A stretch of 42,478 bases of DNA from Candidatus Enterousia sp. (GTDB taxonomy: Bacteria > Pseudomonadota > Alphaproteobacteria > Rs-D84), in NCBI GenBank assembly GCA_045576255.1, contig JAZNGD010000003.1, positions 1-42,478 of the forward strand. The letters run 5' to 3'. Shown here one piece after another: positions 3,242 through 18,458 of the stretch (the stretch's first letter is position 1; each line of letters begins with the position of its first letter). The notes beneath the pieces were generated by a model, which was not told where the DNA came from, ran no database searches, and saw only the letters and a list, made by a program, of their open reading frames with translations. Both the position numbers and the translations under genes were made by a program.

Positions 3242-5005
3242 TTAAATTCGAACGCCGAAACCAATTTTCTTGGCAAAACCAGCAGATTTATGTGCCGATA
3301 ACAAGTCGTCAATTTTATCGATAGTAAATTCTGTTTTTATATCAGCACAATTGTTTTTTAACAGTTCGCGACGCAGCACAGCAGTTATTTCACGTTGTGC
3401 TTGGCGGACGCCTTGTTCAGAAGTATAATTTTGAATTATATGTCTGATTGCATCGTCGGACATAACGATATTTTCAGGTTGCCATCCTGTATCGCGTGCT
3501 GCGCGTTTAATCAAGTGTTCGCGTGCGATTTGTGTTTTTTCTTCCATAGAATAACCTGGAATTTCGATTATTTCCATACGGTCTTTCAAAGCGTTTGACA
3601 TATTCAAACTGTTTGCTGTTGCGATAAACAGAACATTAGACAAATCAAAATCAACTTCCAGATAATGATCGCGAAAAGTTTTGTTTTGTTCTGGGTCCAG
3701 TATTTCTAATAATGCAGATTCTGGATCGCCGCGCCAATCGCGTCCCATTTTATCGATTTCATCCAACACGATAACAGGATTGTTTGTTTTGCATCTTTTC
3801 AATGCATCCATTATACGACCGGTTTGTGCGCCGATGTATGTTTTACGATGTCCGCGAAAATGTGATTCATCGGAAATCCCACCCAACGAAATACGATGAT
3901 ATTTACGCCCAAGCGCATTCGCAACGGATTTTCCCAGTGATGTTTTTCCAACCCCAGGCGCACCAACCAAACACAGAATGCTGCCCTGATTAGTTCCTGT
4001 TTTTTTCATAACTGCGATATGTTCCAGTATTCTTTCTTTGACGTTTTCCATACCAGAATGTTCTGCGTCCAAAATTGCGCGCGCATATTCCAAATCGATT
4101 TCTTTTTTATCAGATTTCCCCCAAGGCATAGCTAACAATTCATCCAGATATGTTTTCAATAATCCGCCTTCGTTCGACATTGGCGACATAGAACGCATAC
4201 GTTTCCATTCGGACATTGCTTTTTCTTTTGCGTCATTTGACATCGCGGAATTTTGGATTTTTTTGCGCAAGTTTACGGTATCTGCTTCGCCATCGTCTTC
4301 GCCCATTTCGCGTTGGATTGCGCGCATTTTTTCTTGTAATATAGCTTCACGTCGACCGTTTTCCATTTGTTGATGGATTCGTTTGTTGATAGATTCTTCA
4401 ATTTTTGCGCTTTCAACAACCAATTTTACTTCTTCCAGTAATATAGTCAGTTTTTCATTCCAGCTGGGTGCGCATAAAATCTTGACAGCAACATCTGTGT
4501 CCAGGTCCAGCGTTTGTATAACAGAATCAACGAACGCCGACATAGGATAATTTTCAACAACGTTGCGAATTTTATCCATTTTAAATTTTCTTGTTGCGTT
4601 TGCCAAAGTTTGCATATTATCGGCGACAATATCGCGCAACATTAAAACAGATTCATCGTTTTCGTCGTTTGCGATTGCGATTTCATTTGTTTCCGCGGCA
4701 AATATACCATCTTTTAATTCAATGTTCTGCAAAGAAACCACGCCAGTTGTCTTGATAAGTGCGTGTATTGCACCGTCCGGCATTGTAAATATATGAATTA
4801 TATCGCCAATTGTACCAACGGAATATATATCGTCAATACTGGTTGGATACCCCCAAGTGTGTTGTGGAACCAGAATTAATTGTTGTTGTCCACTTTGGGC
4901 GGCGGTCTTTACACAATTGACAGACAATGGATTGTCTACTAATACTGGTACAGCGGTCCCCGGAGATACAACAAGATTTCTAAAAGGTAAAATAAATTTT
5001 TTCAT
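3242..5005 (-). CDS. Lon-like AAA+ ATPase (Lon N-domain plus AAA+ module, no S16 peptidase domain)
   Basis: ILPFRNLVVSPG Lon N-terminus, Walker A GAPGVGKTS, GHRKTYIGA, Walker B VIVLDEIDK and lid GVRQAQREI. The ORF stops at ..KKIGFGVRI, where canonical LonA continues into the protease domain. Confidence 0.85.
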   Translation of the reverse strand: MKKFILPFRNLVVSPGTAVPVLVDNPLSVNCVKTAAQSGQQQLILVPQHTWGYPTSIDDIYSVGTIGDIIHIFTMPDGAIHALIKTTGVVSLQNIELKDGIFAAETNEIAIANDENDESVLMLRDIVADNMQTLANATRKFKMDKIRNVVENYPMSAFVDSVIQTLDLDTDVAVKILCAPSWNEKLTILLEEVKLVVESAKIEESINKRIHQQMENGRREAILQEKMRAIQREMGEDDGEADTVNLRKKIQNSAMSNDAKEKAMSEWKRMRSMSPMSNEGGLLKTYLDELLAMPWGKSDKKEIDLEYARAILDAEHSGMENVKERILEHIAVMKKTGTNQGSILCLVGAPGVGKTSLGKSVANALGRKYHRISLGGISDESHFRGHRKTYIGAQTGRIMDALKRCKTNNPVIVLDEIDKMGRDWRGDPESALLEILDPEQNKTFRDHYLEVDFDLSNVLFIATANSLNMSNALKDRMEIIEIPGYSMEEKTQIAREHLIKRAARDTGWQPENIVMSDDAIRHIIQNYTSEQGVRQAQREITAVLRRELLKNNCADIKTEFTIDKIDDLLSAHKSAGFAKKIGFGVRI

Positions 5006-5397: not shown

Positions 5398-5743
5398 CAA
5401 AATGTCGGGTTTCTGGTGCCAGGTACCCGACCAACCCCGCAATAACTAAAACGAATACGGTCAACAATTGCCAACGGTATTCAAGCCATCATTAGGCAGC
5501 CATTGCAAGGCGAACGTTGTCGTTCGCAGCGATTCTATCGCCATTCAGTTTTTAGTCGGCTTTTAACGACGCCATGTCGGATTCAACCAGTTTGTCTTTC
5601 ATCATCTGTCGAAACTATGTCAGCCCCATAACCAAATATGACACAAAAATCATATCAGATAATGGTGGAGCTGTGGGGTACCGCCCCCCAGTCCAAAATG
5701 ACTATTGCACAACGGTTTCAGAATCATCACTGCGTTTGCAGCA
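5398..5743 (-). ncRNA. ssrA: two-piece (circularly permuted) tmRNA gene
   Basis: Minus strand. The acceptor piece ends ..GGGGCGGUACCCCACAGCUCCACCA (CCA at 5665-5663). After a 35-nt spacer the coding piece starts GGGGCUG (5627-5621), which pairs with CAGCUCC and includes the G3:U alanine identity pair. Tag ORF is GCG AAC GAC AAC GTT CGC CTT GCA ATG GCT GCC TAA = ANDNVRLAMAA (5527-5492). Terminal hairpin at 5404-5431 plus a U-run. Outer ends are approximate. Confidence 0.85.
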
Positions 5744-5748
5744 CGACA

Positions 5749-5777
5749 ATTATAGTCTTTTAGACTGGAAATTGCAA
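5749..5777 (-). promoter_or_regulatory. sigma70-type promoter of ssrA
   Basis: TTGCAA (5777-5772), a 17-nt spacer, then TATAAT (5754-5749) on the minus strand. Confidence 0.6.
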
Positions 5778-5795
5778 GTTTTTAAGTTATAATAA

Positions 5796-11783: not shown

Positions 11784-11810
11784 AACAAAACCTGCGTTTA
11801 ATATAATTTT

Positions 11811-11855
11811 TGGTGTGCCCAGCGGGATTCGAACCCACAGTCTTCGCCTTCGGAG
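11811..11855 (-). pseudogene. 3' half of a disrupted host tRNA-Arg(CCG), the left island junction
   Basis: The reverse complement reads CTCCGAA-GGCGA-AGACT-GTGGGTTCGAATCCCGC-TGGGCAC-A-CCA. It ends exactly at the anticodon loop and its acceptor strand pairs with the 5' half at 18420-18458. Confidence 0.88.
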
Positions 11856-11940
11856 TTATATGCTTTGACTGATGTCAAATTCGCTATAATCCTTTGTTTG
11901 TAAGGCGTTGGGCGTGCCTGTATTTATGCTTAAAATTTTG

Positions 11941-11959
11941 TGGCTACCGTATGGCTACC
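11941..11959 (+). promoter_or_regulatory. putative integrase arm-type sites, left end (2 x TGGCTACC)
   Basis: TGGCTACC at 11941-11948 and 11952-11959, with an 11-bp period. The same motif occurs three times at 18269-18296. Confidence 0.45.
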
Positions 11960-11999
11960 TTTTGATATAAAATCAAAGCAAATTTCAAGCAAAATCTTC

Positions 12000-12076
12000 T
12001 GGCGTACCCAGCAGGATTCGAACCTGCAGTCTTCACCTTCGGAGGGTGACGTGTTATCCAGTTGCACCATGGGTAC
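12000..12076 (-). tRNA. island-borne intact tRNA-Arg(CCG)
   Basis: 77-nt cloverleaf: GTACCCA/TGGGTAC acceptor, anticodon loop CTCCGAA, T-arm GCAGG-TTCGAAT-CCTGC, encoded CCA. A TATAGT -10-like box lies about 9 nt upstream. Confidence 0.9.
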
Positions 12077-12240
12077 GTACCGTCAGTATACTATAATAAA
12101 ATTTAATAAAAATCAATCTGCAAGCACATAAATTTAATTGGTTGCTTCATACGACGTAAATATATTTGTTTCTACGGTTGAAAACAGTGAATTCATACCT
12201 ATATTAATAAAGCAATTTAACATAAAATAAAGGTGATAAA

Positions 12241-14271
12241 ATGAAATTAAGGAAAGTTGAAATTGAAAATTTTCGGTCTATAAAAAGTGCTGATATTGAT
12301 TTTGAAAAATACCCATGTCGTATTTTATGGGGAGTTAACGAAAGTGGAAAGAGCAACATAATCAAGGCATTAATGACACTTGATCCAAAATATGACATTC
12401 AACAACATTCTGCCCAGGATAAAAGAATGCCATCAGACGAAGAAACCGACTTTAGTCATCAATATTGGGTTGATTTTTGTTTTGCCTTGGATGATGCAGA
12501 ATTGTTAGGTGTTTATAACAAATTAAAAACTTTGTTCTTATCCAAGAATATTGAAACAGAAAAAATAATCAAAACCGCAAAAAAACAATTTACATTAAAC
12601 GAACTTGTCGCTGCATCAAAAAATATTGTAAAAAGGGTCAATTTGGACAGTGAAAATAACGACCGTCCCGTTTTGTGTTATACTGGTGATTTCACCGCTA
12701 CGCCCAAACCAGAAAAAGAAACATACGAATTGCTAGATGGTTGGTATCAAATACCTGTCAATGTAACAAGTATTAAAATTGAACCAAATAAAATAATTCA
12801 AAAAGGAAATTATAAATTTATAAAATTTGACGACTATGCAGAAAATTATACAGAAGCAGAAATCGCCCAAATGAAAGCCAAACCATTAACTATCTCTGAA
12901 TTGCGTAAATTGGTGCGTGCAGAAATTGAAAATATGGCAAATGCCAAAGTGCCAAATATAATTTCATGGGATGCACTGAAAGACCAAACATTTCATTCCG
13001 ATATACCAATGCAAACTTTTTTACAAAATCCAAGTGCTGAAGCATATTCACACTTCAAAAGTATGTGTTTGTTGGCATCCAAGTATTTTCCGCATAATAA
13101 TGATGCAGAAATTGTTAAAGTTTTTGAAGATGCAAAAAAGGCGAATAGACTGGAAAGTTTATACAGCCACATAGAAGCGGAATCTACCAGATATTTACAA
13201 TCTATTTGGAAAGGGTTTGAAAATGAAGAATTGGTTATAAACACCTCCAGAGGCAACGATTTGATTGGAATTAGTGTCAAACATGTTGGAAGATTCGCCA
13301 ATAAAATACCAACATCATATAGAAGCGACGGATTTAAAAAATTCTTAAAACTTATGTTAACCCTGTCGCTCAAGGTTAAGTATTGTGATATAAAAGATAC
13401 AATAATATTAATTGATGAAGCGGAAACGTTTTTGCATCCGTCTGCGGCAGAAAATTTCCGTGACGAACTAATCAAACTGTCGCAAATTAATAATAATCGC
13501 ATTGTTTTTTCAACACATTCACCGTTCATGATAGACGACAATAATATTGAACGCCATATCATAGTAGAAAAAGATGGCGAAACAACGTCCATTAAAGACG
13601 GACAAGAAGGTCGGTACTTCAAAGAAGAAGAACTTTGGCAAAAAATGGGTTGTCCAATATTGCGTGCCTTTGCACCTAAGAATTTGCTGTTTGAGGGTTG
13701 GGACGATAAAATTTTATACACTGTAGGGCTTAATAAACTTACAGAAGCAGAGCGCAAGATTTTAAAACCTGGACCGACGGCAAAATTAGGGGTTGCTTAT
13801 AGTGACGGTGCACAGAAAATGAGAATTTATGCCCCGACTTTTCAATGGGCGGATTCAAAGCTCATAATTTTGGCTGATTCTGATGATGCGGGAAAAGAAG
13901 AGAAAAAGCATTTTGTGGACAATAGGCTGTGGTGTAATGATACGTTCTTCACTTTTGCAGATTTGGGCGGTTTAGATAACGCCACAGCAGAAGATTATTT
14001 GGTGCAAGACAAGATTGACGAAGCTGTAGCGAAGTTAAAGGCGGAATTTCATATTGAAGATGCACCAGATTTCACAGTAAATGATATGCGCGTTATGCAA
14101 CAGGTTAAAACTTGGTTAAAAAAGAAGTTTACCAGTGAAGAAAAATTGAAGCCAGTGCTGAAAAAATTCAAGGATTTCTTATTTGACGGGTTAACAGAAG
14201 CGGATATCAAAGATGAATATAAAACTGTGCTCAGTGAATTGTCAAAGAAAATAAAAGCTATCAAAAAATAA
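12241..14271 (+). CDS. OLD-family nuclease (N-terminal ABC-type ATPase plus C-terminal TOPRIM)
   Basis: MKLRKVEIENFRSIK start, Walker A GVNESGKSN, Walker B IILIDEAETFLHP, H-loop FSTHSP, TOPRIM Glu (LLFEGWDDK) and DxD (ILADSDDAGKE). AGGTGA RBS. Confidence 0.85.
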   Translation: MKLRKVEIENFRSIKSADIDFEKYPCRILWGVNESGKSNIIKALMTLDPKYDIQQHSAQDKRMPSDEETDFSHQYWVDFCFALDDAELLGVYNKLKTLFLSKNIETEKIIKTAKKQFTLNELVAASKNIVKRVNLDSENNDRPVLCYTGDFTATPKPEKETYELLDGWYQIPVNVTSIKIEPNKIIQKGNYKFIKFDDYAENYTEAEIAQMKAKPLTISELRKLVRAEIENMANAKVPNIISWDALKDQTFHSDIPMQTFLQNPSAEAYSHFKSMCLLASKYFPHNNDAEIVKVFEDAKKANRLESLYSHIEAESTRYLQSIWKGFENEELVINTSRGNDLIGISVKHVGRFANKIPTSYRSDGFKKFLKLMLTLSLKVKYCDIKDTIILIDEAETFLHPSAAENFRDELIKLSQINNNRIVFSTHSPFMIDDNNIERHIIVEKDGETTSIKDGQEGRYFKEEELWQKMGCPILRAFAPKNLLFEGWDDKILYTVGLNKLTEAERKILKPGPTAKLGVAYSDGAQKMRIYAPTFQWADSKLIILADSDDAGKEEKKHFVDNRLWCNDTFFTFADLGGLDNATAEDYLVQDKIDEAVAKLKAEFHIEDAPDFTVNDMRVMQQVKTWLKKKFTSEEKLKPVLKKFKDFLFDGLTEADIKDEYKTVLSELSKKIKAIKK

Positions 14272-14287
14272 TTAAATTATGTGGCTT

Positions 14288-14713
14288 TTATAAATGCACG
14301 ATTTTGACTTCTGGGAAATGTTGTTGCAGGTATTCCGCAACAAGTCGCCTGTGGCAATTTTCAGCAGTCTTTTCTGCACATAAAAAACACACCTTATTTA
14401 TGGTGTCGGGCGTGAACAGGTTTTCTATCCGACGTTTTGTAAGTATGTCGTTGAAAATCTGTTCGTATTCCGCCCAATTTATCGTGCCGTTCTTGATTTT
14501 GGTTAACAAATCAAGCGTTGGTGCCAGTTCTGGCATATATTTATATCTGTCGCCAAGAATACGCTGTAAATTCGTGCCAGATGTCCAAGGCACAAATCGC
14601 GACTGTCGCCACAATCGAACATCAATCACGGTATTAACATCAACAGCATTTAGTATTTCTGCGAAAATTTCTTTGTTTTTTCCGTTTGTTCCGATTGTGT
14701 ATATTTTAAGCAT
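14288..14713 (-). CDS. DUF488-family protein (YeaO-like)
   Basis: IYTIG..., VIDVR, and the C-terminal FLCAEKTAENCHRRLVAEYL signature typical of DUF488. The start overlaps the upstream stop (TAATG). Confidence 0.75.
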   Translation of the reverse strand: MLKIYTIGTNGKNKEIFAEILNAVDVNTVIDVRLWRQSRFVPWTSGTNLQRILGDRYKYMPELAPTLDLLTKIKNGTINWAEYEQIFNDILTKRRIENLFTPDTINKVCFLCAEKTAENCHRRLVAEYLQQHFPEVKIVHL

Positions 14714-15117
14714 TATTTATTCCATTTAACCTTTTGGGCGATAGGGTAATGATGTCTGGTATTAATAAGACCAGTGTCAGCATAACAGTAATTTTCTGGG
14801 TCTTTTATGCTGTAAGTGCGTCCATGTGCATATCCATTGCCGGCATTTTTTATAATCCATGTTTTATGTCTTGTATAATGTCCTTTGTCTGCTCGGACAA
14901 CTGCATCTGTGTCGTTCAAATCTGTGATATAAACAAAGTCCGTTAATTCAAAAACACATTTCGCTTTGCCTTTTTTATATCTGTCAGAATCTGTGTCCAG
15001 ACTGCAATGGTTAACATACCAATAGCCACCTTTTTCTGTGCATTGTTTTTCATTTAAAAAAGTGGCACATCCGGCAAGTGTTGTTATTATTGCCATTGAT
15101 GTCAAAATGTGTTTCAT
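14713..15117 (-). CDS. lipoprotein, hypothetical
   Basis: Signal peptide with lipobox ITTLAGC. CAGGAG RBS. Translationally coupled to the DUF488 gene. Confidence 0.7.
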   Translation of the reverse strand: MKHILTSMAIITTLAGCATFLNEKQCTEKGGYWYVNHCSLDTDSDRYKKGKAKCVFELTDFVYITDLNDTDAVVRADKGHYTRHKTWIIKNAGNGYAHGRTYSIKDPENYCYADTGLINTRHHYPIAQKVKWNK

Positions 15118-15140
15118 TTAACAACTCCTGTGTTGGGTTA

Positions 15141-15335
15141 AACAAAAACCACCGAGAAAAATCTAGGTGGTTGGAGTTTTCTAACAATCATTAAGAATTG
15201 CGCGCCTTATTCAATATATTCAACGCACTCCAACCATAAGGTTGGAGAGAATGTTTCGCCATCTCGGGCGCTTAATGAAGGGTTAGAAAGCCCAATGCAA
15301 GAACACCTTGCATCAATTTCAATGTATCAATTTTT
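15141..15335 (-). promoter_or_regulatory. structured leader or ncRNA with an intrinsic terminator just upstream of the lipoprotein RBS (candidate attenuator or riboswitch-like element)
   Basis: Minus-strand RNA. Terminator is AACCACC-12 nt-GGUGGUU plus UUUGUUU (15172-15141). CUCCAACC occurs twice and its complement GGUUGGAG once, which allows mutually exclusive pairings. There is an 8-bp long-range helix UCAUUAAG/CUUAAUGA and further local hairpins. Confidence 0.45.
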
Positions 15336-15878
15336 TTAGGAAAAATCAACCGGTTTTATCTGGTTTTTGCTTTTTGGTGAAATTAAATCTATGTCTAAAA
15401 TAATTGTATCGTTTGTGATTCTTGTGCCGTCAATTTTTAATTCTTTGGTGATATACGAATAAACACCATCAGAATATATTTTTGTTATCATAATATCGTC
15501 ACCGTATTGTTTTGATGCGGTTTGTTTATCTGTTAAATCATACCATATATCCATTTTTAAGACCGTGGACAGCCCTTTAAGGGTTTCTTGGATGTTGGGT
15601 AGGGCAAAGTGTGCTAAACGTACTCCAAGGATGAAATGTGCGTGCATGTTTAATCGACTGCCTACTTCCTTGAATCCTATTAGCAGAAATTCTTTGTCGT
15701 ATCGTTTGTGCCAGTGGCGACCAAGTAATTTGCGAAACAATCTACAAAATACGGGCTTGCACCGTTTTTGTAGTTCGGCTTTTGTTTTGGGTGCGGTTTT
15801 GAAGCGAATAGATATAAAATATGCTTCGTTGCCACCCAGTTTTTTTAACCAATTTTGTATTTCTGTTTTACAGTGCAT
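15336..15878 (-). CDS. HUH-type Rep-like protein (putative replication or relaxase-type initiator)
   Basis: Three motifs in the canonical order: YFISIRFKT (motif 1-like), NMHAHFILG (HUH) and GVYSYITKE (YxxK). The assignment rests on these motifs only. Confidence 0.45.
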   Translation of the reverse strand: MHCKTEIQNWLKKLGGNEAYFISIRFKTAPKTKAELQKRCKPVFCRLFRKLLGRHWHKRYDKEFLLIGFKEVGSRLNMHAHFILGVRLAHFALPNIQETLKGLSTVLKMDIWYDLTDKQTASKQYGDDIMITKIYSDGVYSYITKELKIDGTRITNDTIILDIDLISPKSKNQIKPVDFS

Positions 15879-16178
15879 TGCGGTTCTCTGTGTGTAGCAA
15901 AAATTCGGTCTTTTTTGTGTTGAATTTGTTGGTTTTTATACTATGCAAAAAGTGTCAAATTTGTCAGATTTTAAACACCGGTAAAAGTGTAAGAATTGTA
16001 AGATTTCTACTATTAAAATTCTAACTGCAAAAATTTTTTTGCAACAGTTGAATTTTAATTTTAAAAGTCCAGAAAATAGCCATTTTTTAGCACATTTCAT
16101 AGAATTGTTGTTATTTGTATAACTGCCAACATTTACGACAAACAGACGCATGTTTTTTTGACGTTTTTGGGTGCGTTT

Positions 16179-16385
16179 TTAAGCGATTGTTGTGAACTGG
16201 TTTGTGCGGTCACATTTGTTGCCGTCTAAATATGCTTGAACATCGGTCATAGCGTATAAAACACGACGTCTGACCTTGGTCCATTTAATCGGGCATTCAC
16301 GATTTGTACGCCAGCGTTCAATAGTGTTCTTTTTTACCTGCAGTAAGTCTGCCAGTTGTTGTGTTGTGATGTATTCATTTTGCAT
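16179..16385 (-). CDS. AlpA-family helix-turn-helix regulator/excisionase
   Basis: 68 aa. TTQQLADLLQVKKNTIERWRTN..P is typical of AlpA/MerR-type HTH proteins in P4-like islands. GGGAG RBS. Confidence 0.8.
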   Translation of the reverse strand: MQNEYITTQQLADLLQVKKNTIERWRTNRECPIKWTKVRRRVLYAMTDVQAYLDGNKCDRTNQFTTIA

Positions 16386-16461
16386 ATCCTTGCTCCCTTT
16401 GTTTTGTTGTTTACAGGGGCAATATATGTCTAAAAATATCCAAATAAAAGTTTATAAAAAT

Positions 16462-16494
16462 TTAGCTAGCTAATGGTTCGTGTTAGCTAGCTAA
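16462..16494. promoter_or_regulatory. twin palindromic operator candidates
   Basis: The perfect 12-bp palindrome TTAGCTAGCTAA occurs at 16462-16473 and 16483-16494, 21 bp centre to centre, upstream of the AlpA-like gene. Confidence 0.5.
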
Positions 16495-16500
16495 TACGAA

Positions 16501-17052
16501 TTACCACATACAAATCCAATCGTAAATTGTTTTTGCACTGCGTTTGATTCCTTGTTTTAAAAGCTCTGCTTGCAAGCAAACAGCTTCGTCAAAACTACGT
16601 TTTTTGCCATTCGCAATCCAAATTTCTTTCGCTTTTTCTTTAATTTTGTTCTTTTTTATAGCAGTAATTTTTGCACCACGCTTTTTTGCGATATATTCCA
16701 GTCTATACAATAAGTGAATTGTATGTGCATATAGTAAACTTTTTAATTCTTCTTGTGCTGATGTCTGAGGGCTGGTTGAGAGTATGAAATAATATTTAAC
16801 AGCACTTTCAAAATACATTTGATCTACATACGATAAGTTTGTGTTATTTTGTAATGATTCATATATGGAGTCAAGCGGCACGTTAAACAGTGTCATATAT
16901 TTTTCGGTTATTAAAGCAATAGATGTATCATTTAATTTATCAAACAATCTGTAGTGATTGTTCTTTTTGGCTCGGTTTAATGCGTTCTTTATCTGTTGTG
17001 TAAACTGTTCTTTACTTAATTCACTGAGTGAAATAATGTTGTTCTGGGTCAT
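16501..17052 (-). CDS. island hypothetical protein
   Basis: Long ORF between the integrase and AlpA-like genes. No recognisable motifs. Confidence 0.6.
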   Translation of the reverse strand: MTQNNIISLSELSKEQFTQQIKNALNRAKKNNHYRLFDKLNDTSIALITEKYMTLFNVPLDSIYESLQNNTNLSYVDQMYFESAVKYYFILSTSPQTSAQEELKSLLYAHTIHLLYRLEYIAKKRGAKITAIKKNKIKEKAKEIWIANGKKRSFDEAVCLQAELLKQGIKRSAKTIYDWICMW

Positions 17053-17064
17053 ATCTGTCCCTTA

Positions 17065-18249
17065 TTATTTTTGTTGGTTGATTGCGGCAAACATTGCGTC
17101 TGTGCCTTTTTGAATACTCTCCAGAACCGCGTTGTTCCCGCGTCTTGCATAAACGGAAATTGCCGCAGGTGATTTATCGCCCAAAGCTTTCCCTATCATT
17201 TCATCTGTTGAGCCACTCATTGCTTGATAACTGGCAAATGTTCTGCGTAAATCGTGCATACGCAGGTTTTCTATTCCGGCACGTTTCAAGAAAGCACGCC
17301 AAGCGATTTGTGGGTTTGCCAAATGTCCGCTTTCTGAACGTTCGCTTGGGAATATCCATTCACTGGTTGCGCGTTCTTTCATGTTTGACAGGTAATCTAA
17401 TGCCTGTTGTGAAAGTGGCACCAGTTGCGGTTTTCCTGTTTTTGTTTTTGCGATACTTAAGGTTTTACGTTCAAAACTGATGTCAGACCAGCGAAGTGCT
17501 TGCATATTGCTACGTCGTTGCCCAACAAGCAGACATAGCATTACGAAATCACGAAACCACTTTTGTGGTTCTGCATTCAACGCTTCAATAAAATGTGGAA
17601 ATTCGTCTTCTTTGATATAGCGGTCTCTGGACACTTCTTTAAATAATTTTATACGTGCCGCAGGGTTGGTTGTTGGCAAATCCCAATCAATCGCCTTATA
17701 AAACATTTGTCGCATTAATTTTAACGCACGATTGGCAGAATATACACTGTTCAATTCCAGTTTCAACCTGTTGTGCATACGTTCCATGTCACCACGGGTA
17801 ATGTCAAGCATCTTTCGCCGTTTAATCTCGGACGGAATATACAACCGCATAATCATTTCGTCCATGTTTTGTGATTTTTTGTTTTTTCTTACCAATGAAT
17901 GAGCAGGGTAGTAAAAATCGTCAAAAAATTGTTGTACCGTTACATCTTGACGCAATTTCTTTTTCTCGTCATTTGGGTTTTTACCGTCATTGACGATTTT
18001 CATATTTTCAATCAACAAATCACGTGCGTCTTTAAGGGATGTGTTCTCAGAATCTGCCAAATTAACCCATATCTTGCGTCCATTTACGCGTTTAATCAGA
18101 TAATATATTTTTGTTGTTTCGCCGACACGCACAGCCAGATTTTTGGTTGTTGTATCATAAACGGTATATCTGTCACCTTTGTCGGCAAATGGTAATTCTG
18201 CGATTCTCGCTTCGGTAAAATTGAAATGGGTTTCTTTTGGTCTTGGCAT
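17065..18249 (-). CDS. int: tyrosine site-specific integrase, P4-type (DUF4102-like arm-binding N-domain)
   Basis: N-terminus FADKGDRYTVYDTTTKNLAVRVG. Catalytic residues: GQRRSN (Arg), HDLRRT (His-x-x-Arg) and ISVYARR (Tyr). Confidence 0.93.
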   Translation of the reverse strand: MPRPKETHFNFTEARIAELPFADKGDRYTVYDTTTKNLAVRVGETTKIYYLIKRVNGRKIWVNLADSENTSLKDARDLLIENMKIVNDGKNPNDEKKKLRQDVTVQQFFDDFYYPAHSLVRKNKKSQNMDEMIMRLYIPSEIKRRKMLDITRGDMERMHNRLKLELNSVYSANRALKLMRQMFYKAIDWDLPTTNPAARIKLFKEVSRDRYIKEDEFPHFIEALNAEPQKWFRDFVMLCLLVGQRRSNMQALRWSDISFERKTLSIAKTKTGKPQLVPLSQQALDYLSNMKERATSEWIFPSERSESGHLANPQIAWRAFLKRAGIENLRMHDLRRTFASYQAMSGSTDEMIGKALGDKSPAAISVYARRGNNAVLESIQKGTDAMFAAINQQK

Positions 18250-18268
18250 AACTTGTCCTTTTGTGTTG

Positions 18269-18296
18269 TGGCTACCACGGCTACTGTATGGCTACC
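18269..18296 (+). promoter_or_regulatory. putative integrase arm-type sites, right end (3 x GGCTAC) in the int upstream region
   Basis: TGGCTACC at 18269-18276, GGCTAC at 18279-18284 and TGGCTACC at 18289-18296, with a period of about 10 bp, 20-47 bp upstream of the int start codon. Confidence 0.45.
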
Positions 18297-18419
18297 ATTT
18301 AAGATAAAACTAGACGGTTATGATATAAAACATTATAAAGCTATAAAGCCCAGAAATCAAGGGAAAATATAAAAATAAGTAAAATTTGATAAAACCCAAG
18401 AAAAGTGTAGAGCATAAAA

Positions 18420-18458
18420 TTCGGAGGGCGACGCATTATCCAGTTGTGCTATGGGCAC
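18420..18458 (-). pseudogene. 5' half of the disrupted host tRNA-Arg(CCG), the right island junction
   Basis: The reverse complement reads GTGCCCA-TA-GCAC-AACTGGATA-ATGC-G-TCGCC-CTCCGAA. No 3' half follows it. Its acceptor strand pairs with 11815-11821. Confidence 0.88.

Follow-up and report, generated by a model that had tools for sequence, protein, structure and literature searches.

An OLD-family gene in an integrative island

The DNA analysed here is a contiguous stretch of 42,478 nucleotides from Candidatus Enterousia sp. (contig JAZNGD010000003.1), hereafter the window, in which an integrase-bearing island of 6.6 kb (11856-18419) is inserted in the anticodon loop of a tRNA-Arg(CCG) gene. 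The island carries a gene for an OLD-family protein of 676 amino acids (aa), combining an ABC-type ATPase with a TOPRIM nuclease domain, and, on the opposite strand, a two-gene operon encoding a small lipoprotein and a DUF488 protein (Table 1). The OLD and DUF488 stop codons converge and are 16 bp apart (14272-14287), while the lipoprotein and DUF488 genes share a one-base TAATG stop/start overlap at 14713. An earlier reading of this DNA from its letters alone (the sequence-only reading) had described these three open reading frames (ORFs) together with their motifs, the overlap and the gap, and we found all of them in the sequence or its translations. Our analysis identifies the OLD gene as a stand-alone, Class 1 gene and as the only cargo that is exchanged between copies of the island.

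The ATPase part of the OLD translation contains the motifs GVNESGKSN (residues 30-38), LIDEAETFLHP (390-400) and THSP (425-428), and the TOPRIM part contains FEGWDD (484-489) and LADSDDAGK (543-551). Pfam returned AAA_15 (1e-25) and AAA_21 (1.9e-16), both covering the ATPase part only, and the N-terminus scored above the Pfam cut-off for DUF2813/YbjD. The top PADLOC model was 'Old' (1.2e-28), followed by the AriA, AbiLi, GajA and PtuA ATPase models. The sole sequence match in the PDB was the Class 1 OLD of Thermus scotoductus (Ts OLD, 6P74). The same structure came first (1.3e-16), ahead of GajA, in a Foldseek search with an AlphaFold2 (AF2) model of the protein (mean predicted local distance difference test, pLDDT, 86.5); this search also returned the heads of Rad50, SMC and PtuA for the ATPase part.

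Residue conservation was derived from an alignment of 29 homologues. The invariant positions are G31, N33, E34, G36, K37, R361-S-D-G-F365, D392, E393 and H426 in the N-terminal part, and E485, G486, D489, D546, D548, T582, E584, D585 and K644 in the C-terminal part. The profile of this alignment matched the TOPRIM regions of Ts OLD (1.4e-15) and GajA (1.7e-13), superimposing E485/D489 on E377/D381 of Ts OLD and D546/D548 on D431/D433. A basic residue, K591, lies at +7 after T582-x-E584, the same spacing as R487 in Ts OLD and K550 in P2 Old. The invariant residues match the catalytic set of Schiltz et al. (PMC7049728). Beyond the TOPRIM core, the AF2 model shows four helices (589-603, 618-626, 633-648 and 658-673), and the invariant K644 falls inside this region. 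Since profile alignment and fold comparison agree, a TOPRIM domain is present even though the corresponding Pfam model misses it; the OLD architecture suggested by the sequence-only reading is confirmed, and the catalytic set is intact. The gene is under purifying selection, with a ratio of non-synonymous to synonymous substitution rates (dN/dS) of 0.06-0.08.

Absence of a conserved partner gene

Does the OLD gene have a partner? In Pfam and PADLOC profile searches, none of the island ORFs encodes a helicase, a reverse transcriptase or a DUF4435 protein, in agreement with the earlier statement that the GajB, reverse transcriptase and DUF4435 partners of known OLD-containing systems are absent from the island. 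Gabija membership was rejected, as the gene downstream of OLD is the convergent DUF488 gene, no helicase occurs in the island and none recurs near homologues. Class 3 and retron assignments were rejected as well: no reverse-transcriptase domain was found in the island ORFs, Rfam finds a tRNA only, and the match of the OLD protein to the retron_eff_Eco8 model scores 48 bits against a cut-off of 250. PARIS was rejected because the AriA model covers the ATPase part only and there is no DUF4435 match; the AriA structures in the PDB align weakly with the OLD profile (E = 1.7e-4), around Walker B.

The closest homologues lie in quite different surroundings. The gene of a 72% identical protein (P0002) sits between a type I restriction-modification (R-M) system and DarT/DarG, with an integrase nearby, and its DNA similarity to the window is confined to the ORF (12225-14263); no DUF488 gene was found in its neighbourhood. 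In that locus (L081 2436-12182) the order is type I R-M (HsdM/S/R), two small ORFs, OLD, and then convergent DarG (Macro) and DarT, with a split integrase and serine recombinases further on, forming a defence island other than that of the window. A 48% homologue adjoins a type I R-M system and a 40% homologue has unrelated neighbours. None of the three has an adjacent DUF488, helicase or reverse transcriptase gene.

For the wider family we took the best 80 loci from a scan of GTDB species representatives, at 24-31% identity and from many phyla. A DUF488 ORF occurred within 8 kb of the OLD relative in one of them. When all genes within 2.5 kb were clustered, no neighbour family was present in more than 8 of the 80 loci; the commonest neighbours were a resolvase, an N6_N4 methyltransferase, HsdS, HsdR and HsdM, along with a syntenic RNR gene in Campylobacter. 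No UvrD-like, reverse-transcriptase or DUF4435 partner recurs beside OLD at these loci. The window gene therefore falls into Class 1 by its published definition, a single gene without a conserved adjacent partner (PMC12392090, PMC10568477). Approached from the other side, the result is the same: no OLD-like ORF was found at any of 80 DUF488-N3a loci from metagenomes. Phage, plasmid and IMG/VR collections contained nothing close.

An exchangeable slot between conserved flanks

In blastn comparison with the sister island L095, identity is 96.9% between the right junction and the base that follows the DUF488 stop (18499-14286); there is no match across 14285-12121, and similarity resumes at 94.5% over 12120-11829, 44 nucleotides before the tRNA gene. 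With no homology inside this interval and a near-identical backbone on either side, the OLD gene is the sole exchanged cargo, and the lipoprotein-DUF488 pair, which the sequence-only reading had also counted as cargo, belongs to the conserved backbone. Close DUF488 homologues (87-98%) are present on many contigs, from gut and other metagenomes, and always in the same backbone, in the order integrase, small variable ORF, HTH_17 protein, 180-aa (or 174/202-aa) protein, 134-aa lipoprotein and DUF488. Two alleles of the slot were seen, and both are OLD-family genes. The first is the 676-aa OLD (OLD676), convergent with DUF488; the second, found in sister islands, encodes a 565-aa OLD (OLD565) with AAA_21 and OLD-like_TOPRIM domains and is co-directional with DUF488. 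The two proteins can be aligned over 134 aa only, at 31% identity, around the signature and Walker B. IMG/VR contains relatives of OLD676 at 23-29% only and none of OLD565.

The island is 92-97% identical in L095 (3213-9597) and L103 (3168-9908), whereas identity drops to 69-78% in the host flanks, and it is inverted relative to the flanks of the sister genomes (rubrerythrin ... APH-like/RF2). This indicates that the island has moved between hosts by a recent horizontal transfer and that the target tRNA gene is inverted. In L126-L129 the integrase is split into ORFs of 109 aa and 261/266 aa (for example L126 1466-2651), with OLD, DUF488 and lipoprotein genes intact; these copies look like decaying, immobilised islands that retain their cargo.

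These comparisons bear on the proposal of a single, undescribed multi-component system made up of OLD, DUF488 and perhaps the lipoprotein, in which DUF488 would regulate, sense for or confer immunity to the OLD protein in the slot. In all the island copies seen, DUF488 and an OLD-family gene are indeed immediate neighbours, at only 16 bp in the window, DUF488-N3a is a component of a PADLOC candidate system, and the slot alleles, unrelated as they are, are nonetheless both OLD-family genes. However, the association does not extend beyond the island: the 72%, 48% and 40% homologues and 79 of the 80 wider loci lack DUF488, and the DUF488-N3a loci lack OLD. Moreover, the two alleles are oppositely oriented with respect to DUF488 and the breakpoint falls exactly between the genes, so that OLD is swapped independently of its neighbour. 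The two-component system put forward in the sequence-only reading is thus contradicted by neighbourhood statistics in both directions, and all the evidence is in line with its alternative, in which a single-gene OLD of Class-1-like type has no dependence on the lipoprotein operon. We leave the multi-component idea a very small probability because both slot alleles are OLD-family genes.

The OLD protein might instead serve the island itself, through post-segregational addiction, replication or partition, or interference with rival islands at the same tRNA gene, and have no part in phage defence. We regard this as quite improbable. One OLD clade, from archaea, acts in the cell cycle and not in defence (PMC12796447), the island has no other obvious stability functions, and OLD is intact in the copies whose integrase is split. 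On the other hand, homologues are found beside R-M and DarTG systems and in chromosomal contexts without this island, the slot is exchangeable in the manner of the P2/P4 defence hotspots, and stand-alone ABC-TOPRIM genes have demonstrated anti-phage activity (PMC12392090, PMC10568477).

The lipoprotein-DUF488 operon and its leader

The N-terminus of the lipoprotein, MKHILTSMAIITTLAGC, is a predicted signal peptide with a lipobox fitting the pattern [LVI][ASTVI][GAS]C. A word-indexed search grouped the family into four 90% clusters, in all of which G16, C17, C26, C38, C54 and C111 are invariant, and an HMM (hidden Markov model) search of 1.8 billion proteins yielded three 50% representatives. 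The protein matches no Pfam or PADLOC family and is a lineage-restricted orphan. Its dN/dS is about 0.2-0.3. Between islands, lipoprotein alleles (compared with L124 and L126, at 4597-5001 in each) have 71-80% amino acid identity and a synonymous divergence (dS) of 0.8-1.1, against 0.16-0.22 for DUF488, which looks like allelic replacement within the backbone. A remote relative, carried by an element that has a serine recombinase but no DUF488, lies behind an Mrr-like nuclease gene.

The leader upstream of the lipoprotein gene, described as structured in the sequence-only reading, does fold with a free energy of -67.1 kcal/mol, as compared to -46.4 +/- 4.0 in shuffled sequences (z = -5.2). It has no match in Rfam. 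Its conservation among islands, at 97-100%, is above that of the flanking genes, and leaves too little variation for a covariation analysis. The leader may be an attenuator or a small RNA of the island.

Pfam identifies both DUF488 and DUF488-N3a in the 141-aa protein, which contains a C..C......CHRR motif, and PADLOC gives a full-length match to PDC-M45C (1.2e-36). The gene has a dN/dS of 0.23-0.33. Residues D31, R33, Y57, P61-E62-L63, P65-T66, W80, Y83, C109, C112, E114 and C120-H121-R122 are invariant, which suggests an enzyme or metal site while indicating no specific chemistry. The AF2 model is of high confidence (pLDDT 96.3), and neither a significant fold match nor a sequence match was obtained in the PDB. 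According to BFVD, phages carry a DUF488-like fold too, for instance PhiPA3 gp174.

PDC-M45 is a three-gene operon of components A (DuOB), B (a DUF488 paralogue of about 210 aa) and C (DUF488-N3a, about 145 aa). Pfam and PADLOC searches found neither A nor B beside the window gene, and membership was rejected, component C being present alone. A canonical operon was found around a 40% DUF488 homologue (P0239), with DuOB (224 aa), DUF488 (212 aa) and DUF488-N3a (145 aa), flanked by a type I R-M system, a PIN toxin-antitoxin pair and KwaA (L114). At the 80 metagenome loci, the upstream neighbour of DUF488-N3a is a DUF488 paralogue in 42 of 56 cases, the upstream gene overlaps the DUF488 start by 4 nucleotides in 26 of 56, and DuOB is present at 39 of 80; the canonical operon occurs at 39-42 of the 80. 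Among the 62% DUF488 homologues, the coupled gene encodes either a DUF5131 protein (PDC-M41B/M30B) or a 215-aa protein, the latter in a locus between SerRS and BipA. Overlaps of 1 or 4 nucleotides translationally couple nearly all DUF488-N3a genes to a variable upstream gene (L111 6354-7426, L113 6306-7426, L114 4692-6438, L136-L215), most commonly a DUF488 paralogue of about 210 aa preceded by DuOB, otherwise the 215-aa family or DUF5131. This suggests a constant, presumably enzymatic module with exchangeable partners. As other loci have DuOB and the DUF488 paralogue upstream, the window gene is an orphan 'C' component that has another kind of gene upstream of it.

Could this operon be a defence or exclusion module of the island in its own right, either as a reduced or variant form of a PDC-M45-like system or as a superinfection-exclusion lipoprotein with an enzyme? 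Such a role would be compatible with a stand-alone OLD, and we give it a small but real chance. The full-length PDC-M45C match, the defence genes on either side of the canonical operon, the maintenance of the pair under purifying selection in all islands, the excess divergence of lipoprotein alleles over their neighbours and the remote lipoprotein homologue behind a nuclease gene in another mobile element all point this way. Against it, PDC systems are unvalidated candidates and components A and B are absent here, the 62% homologues occupy housekeeping contexts (for example SerRS-215aa-DUF488-BipA), the DUF488 fold has no match that would point to its chemistry and is encoded by phages too, and the lipoprotein has no family match. 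A more specific version, in which the operon is gated by its terminator-containing leader and constitutes an undescribed exclusion or defence module, alone or by modulating the OLD protein of the slot, is rather unlikely in our opinion; modulation of whichever OLD fills the slot would explain why both known alleles are OLD genes.

Structure and insertion of the island

The two halves of the host tRNA gene at the island junctions have only the anticodon-loop sequence TTCGGAG in common, and when joined in silico they form a perfect 77-nucleotide tRNA-Arg(CCG). Elements that target tRNA genes mostly rebuild the 3' part of the gene through attP. This island leaves the host gene split and brings a complete replacement tRNA-Arg(CCG). 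We rejected a model in which the left end is a tandem remnant, as the segment comprising the tRNA and the arm repeats is conserved in L095 at the level of the island (94.5%) and not at that of the flanks (69-78%). In L095 (9560-9700), some 90 nucleotides are inserted in the T-arm region of the orphaned 3' tRNA-Arg half. The scan of GTDB species representatives returned no close relative of the island.

The backbone had been called P4-like in the sequence-only reading. Only the P4-type integrase and the AlpA-like HTH_17 protein support this description, since the proposed Rep-like protein has only a sub-threshold match (Table 1). Elsewhere in the window, a permuted, two-piece alpha-type transfer-messenger RNA (5401-5781, minus strand; RF01849, 161.6 bits) with the tag AANDNVRLAMAA identifies the host as an alphaproteobacterium.

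Table 1. Features of the island and of its junctions in the window
Feature	Position	Strand	Remarks
Orphaned 3' half of host tRNA-Arg(CCG)	11808-11855	-	Left junction; 7-bp core TTCGGAG at 11849-11855
GGCTACC arm-type repeats, P' arm of reconstructed attP	11942-11972	.	87% repeat of 18279-18309; island-level identity in L095
Intact island-borne tRNA-Arg(CCG)	12000-12076	-	ARAGORN; Rfam tRNA 62.6 bits; same place in sister islands
Variable cargo slot	12121-14285	.	Sole island segment without homology to L095; blastn breakpoints 14286 and 12120
Promoter-like site, OLD gene	12178-12205	+	TTGAAA-16-TATATT, 10/12 consensus positions; consensus match only
OLD-family ABC ATPase-TOPRIM nuclease, 676 aa	12241-14271	+	Stand-alone, Class 1 by context
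OLD key residues, ATPase part	Walker A K37; Walker B D392/E393; H-loop H426
OLD key residues, TOPRIM	E485, D489, D546, D548, T582, E584, K591
DUF488-N3a protein, 141 aa	14288-14713	-	Homologue of PADLOC PDC-M45C; conserved island backbone
Lipoprotein, 134 aa	14713-15117	-	Lipobox LAGC and four more invariant Cys; translationally coupled to DUF488
Structured leader, 218 nt	15118-15335	-	Terminator-like hairpin (near 15135-15165) with U-run, some 30 nt upstream of the ribosome-binding site of the lipoprotein gene
Backbone protein, 180 aa	15336-15878	-	Sub-threshold Rep-like match PF23343, E = 0.013
HTH_17 (AlpA/excisionase-like) protein, 68 aa	16179-16385	-	Pfam 2.9e-10; phrog_66
Backbone protein, 183 aa	16501-17052	-	No family match
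Tyrosine integrase, Arm-DNA-bind_3 N-terminal domain	17065-18249	-	Pfam; phrog_1 6e-56
GGCTACC arm-type repeats, P arm beside int	18279-18309	.
Orphaned 5' half of host tRNA-Arg(CCG)	18420-18458	-	Right junction; core TTCGGAG at 18420-18426

A probable lone effector in the slot

Our results show the architecture of the OLD protein, its conserved catalytic residues, purifying selection, the cassette-like exchange and the lack of a conserved partner, and in our view it is probable that this stand-alone Class 1 OLD, as the only exchangeable cargo of the island, functions in defence, most likely as a lone effector against phages or other mobile elements. If it resembles P2 Old, Ts OLD and Vc OLD in this respect, the protein would act alone. 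Its ABC-type ATPase head, with an inserted oligomerisation domain, would license the two-metal TOPRIM nuclease, which upon an infection-linked trigger would nick or degrade DNA; the anti-phage role, the trigger and the substrate are what we infer here. That a Class 1 OLD can provide defence as a single gene has been established by experiment (PMC12392090, PMC13261556, PMC10568477), notably for Vc OLD (PMC12392090) and YbjD (PMC13261556). The lipoprotein-DUF488 operon is a separate module within the conserved backbone. Its lipoprotein probably reaches the outer membrane and could have an exclusion function, and DUF488-N3a is a predicted cytoplasmic enzyme; these roles are likewise our inference.

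Several observations weigh against this interpretation. The Pfam OLD-like_TOPRIM model (PF20469) finds no match in the 676-aa protein, which is longer than typical Class 1 members and has a helical C-terminus of about 90 aa, with Lys644, that is absent from Ts OLD. Because of this length and this C-terminal region, the protein is no close relative of any characterised Class 1 enzyme. That both alleles of the slot beside DUF488 come from the OLD family could be a sign of a functional link. Finally, OLD proteins are not always defensive, as the archaeal clade Cran1, with its cell-cycle role, illustrates (PMC12796447).

Comparison with known systems

Defence genes of the stand-alone OLD type already form an established class (P2 Old, Vc OLD, YbjD), and our results leave current concepts unchanged, since the present reading of the OLD gene would not surprise a specialist. 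Like P2 Old, Ts OLD (6P74), Vc OLD and E. coli YbjD, the window OLD is a single gene without helicase, reverse transcriptase or AriB; the metal A, metal B and basic-residue sets of Class 1 are complete in it and, like P2 old, it is borne by a mobile element. Shortness and the lack of a C-terminal helical domain, which are tendencies of Class 1 and not part of its definition, are not features of this protein. Ts OLD is its best match among solved structures, by sequence and by fold, but differs in having about 14% identity, a chain of 528 aa instead of 676 and no four-helix C-terminus (589-673). The Class 2 protein GajA of Gabija has the same two domains, is the second-best structural and profile match and likewise has helices after its TOPRIM domain; the UvrD-like GajB, however, is not found downstream in the window or in the approximately 90 homologous loci examined. 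The window OLD is thus a single-gene member of Class 1, and it represents a large and uncharacterised subfamily of long proteins (~630-676 aa), for which 546 matches at E <= 1e-5 were obtained among 8,000 candidates scored, from many bacterial and some archaeal phyla. This is of interest as less is understood of Class 1 than of any other OLD class, and a phenotype has been reported for only three of its members.

With regard to the operon, the window DUF488 corresponds to component C of PDC-M45 (DuOB + DUF488 + DUF488-N3a) and is likewise translationally coupled to its upstream gene, but it lacks A and B, an unrelated secreted lipoprotein takes the place of the upstream partner, and PDC-M45 itself is only a candidate system. 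Prophage exclusion lipoproteins such as T5 Llp and phi80/N15 Cor are small lipobox proteins of mobile elements with fast allelic turnover. The window lipoprotein resembles them in this general way, while no sequence or family similarity was detected. The island offers a defined setting for DUF488-N3a as a PADLOC candidate component and, should the operon prove to be an exclusion or defence module, this would be the first functional assignment for DUF488-N3a.

The island as a whole is reminiscent of the P2/P4-like defence hotspots, which are also small integrase-bearing elements with one slot exchanging alternative defence genes in a near-identical backbone; an example of such a slot is the P2 old locus (PMC10568477). 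It differs from them in lacking the P4 primase, sid, psu, delta and capsid-related genes, in showing only two slot alleles so far, and in splitting its tRNA target and carrying a replacement tRNA. The natural exchange of the cassette marks OLD as a self-contained unit, and two unrelated OLD genes in an identical backbone provide a compact natural system in which to compare OLD specificities.

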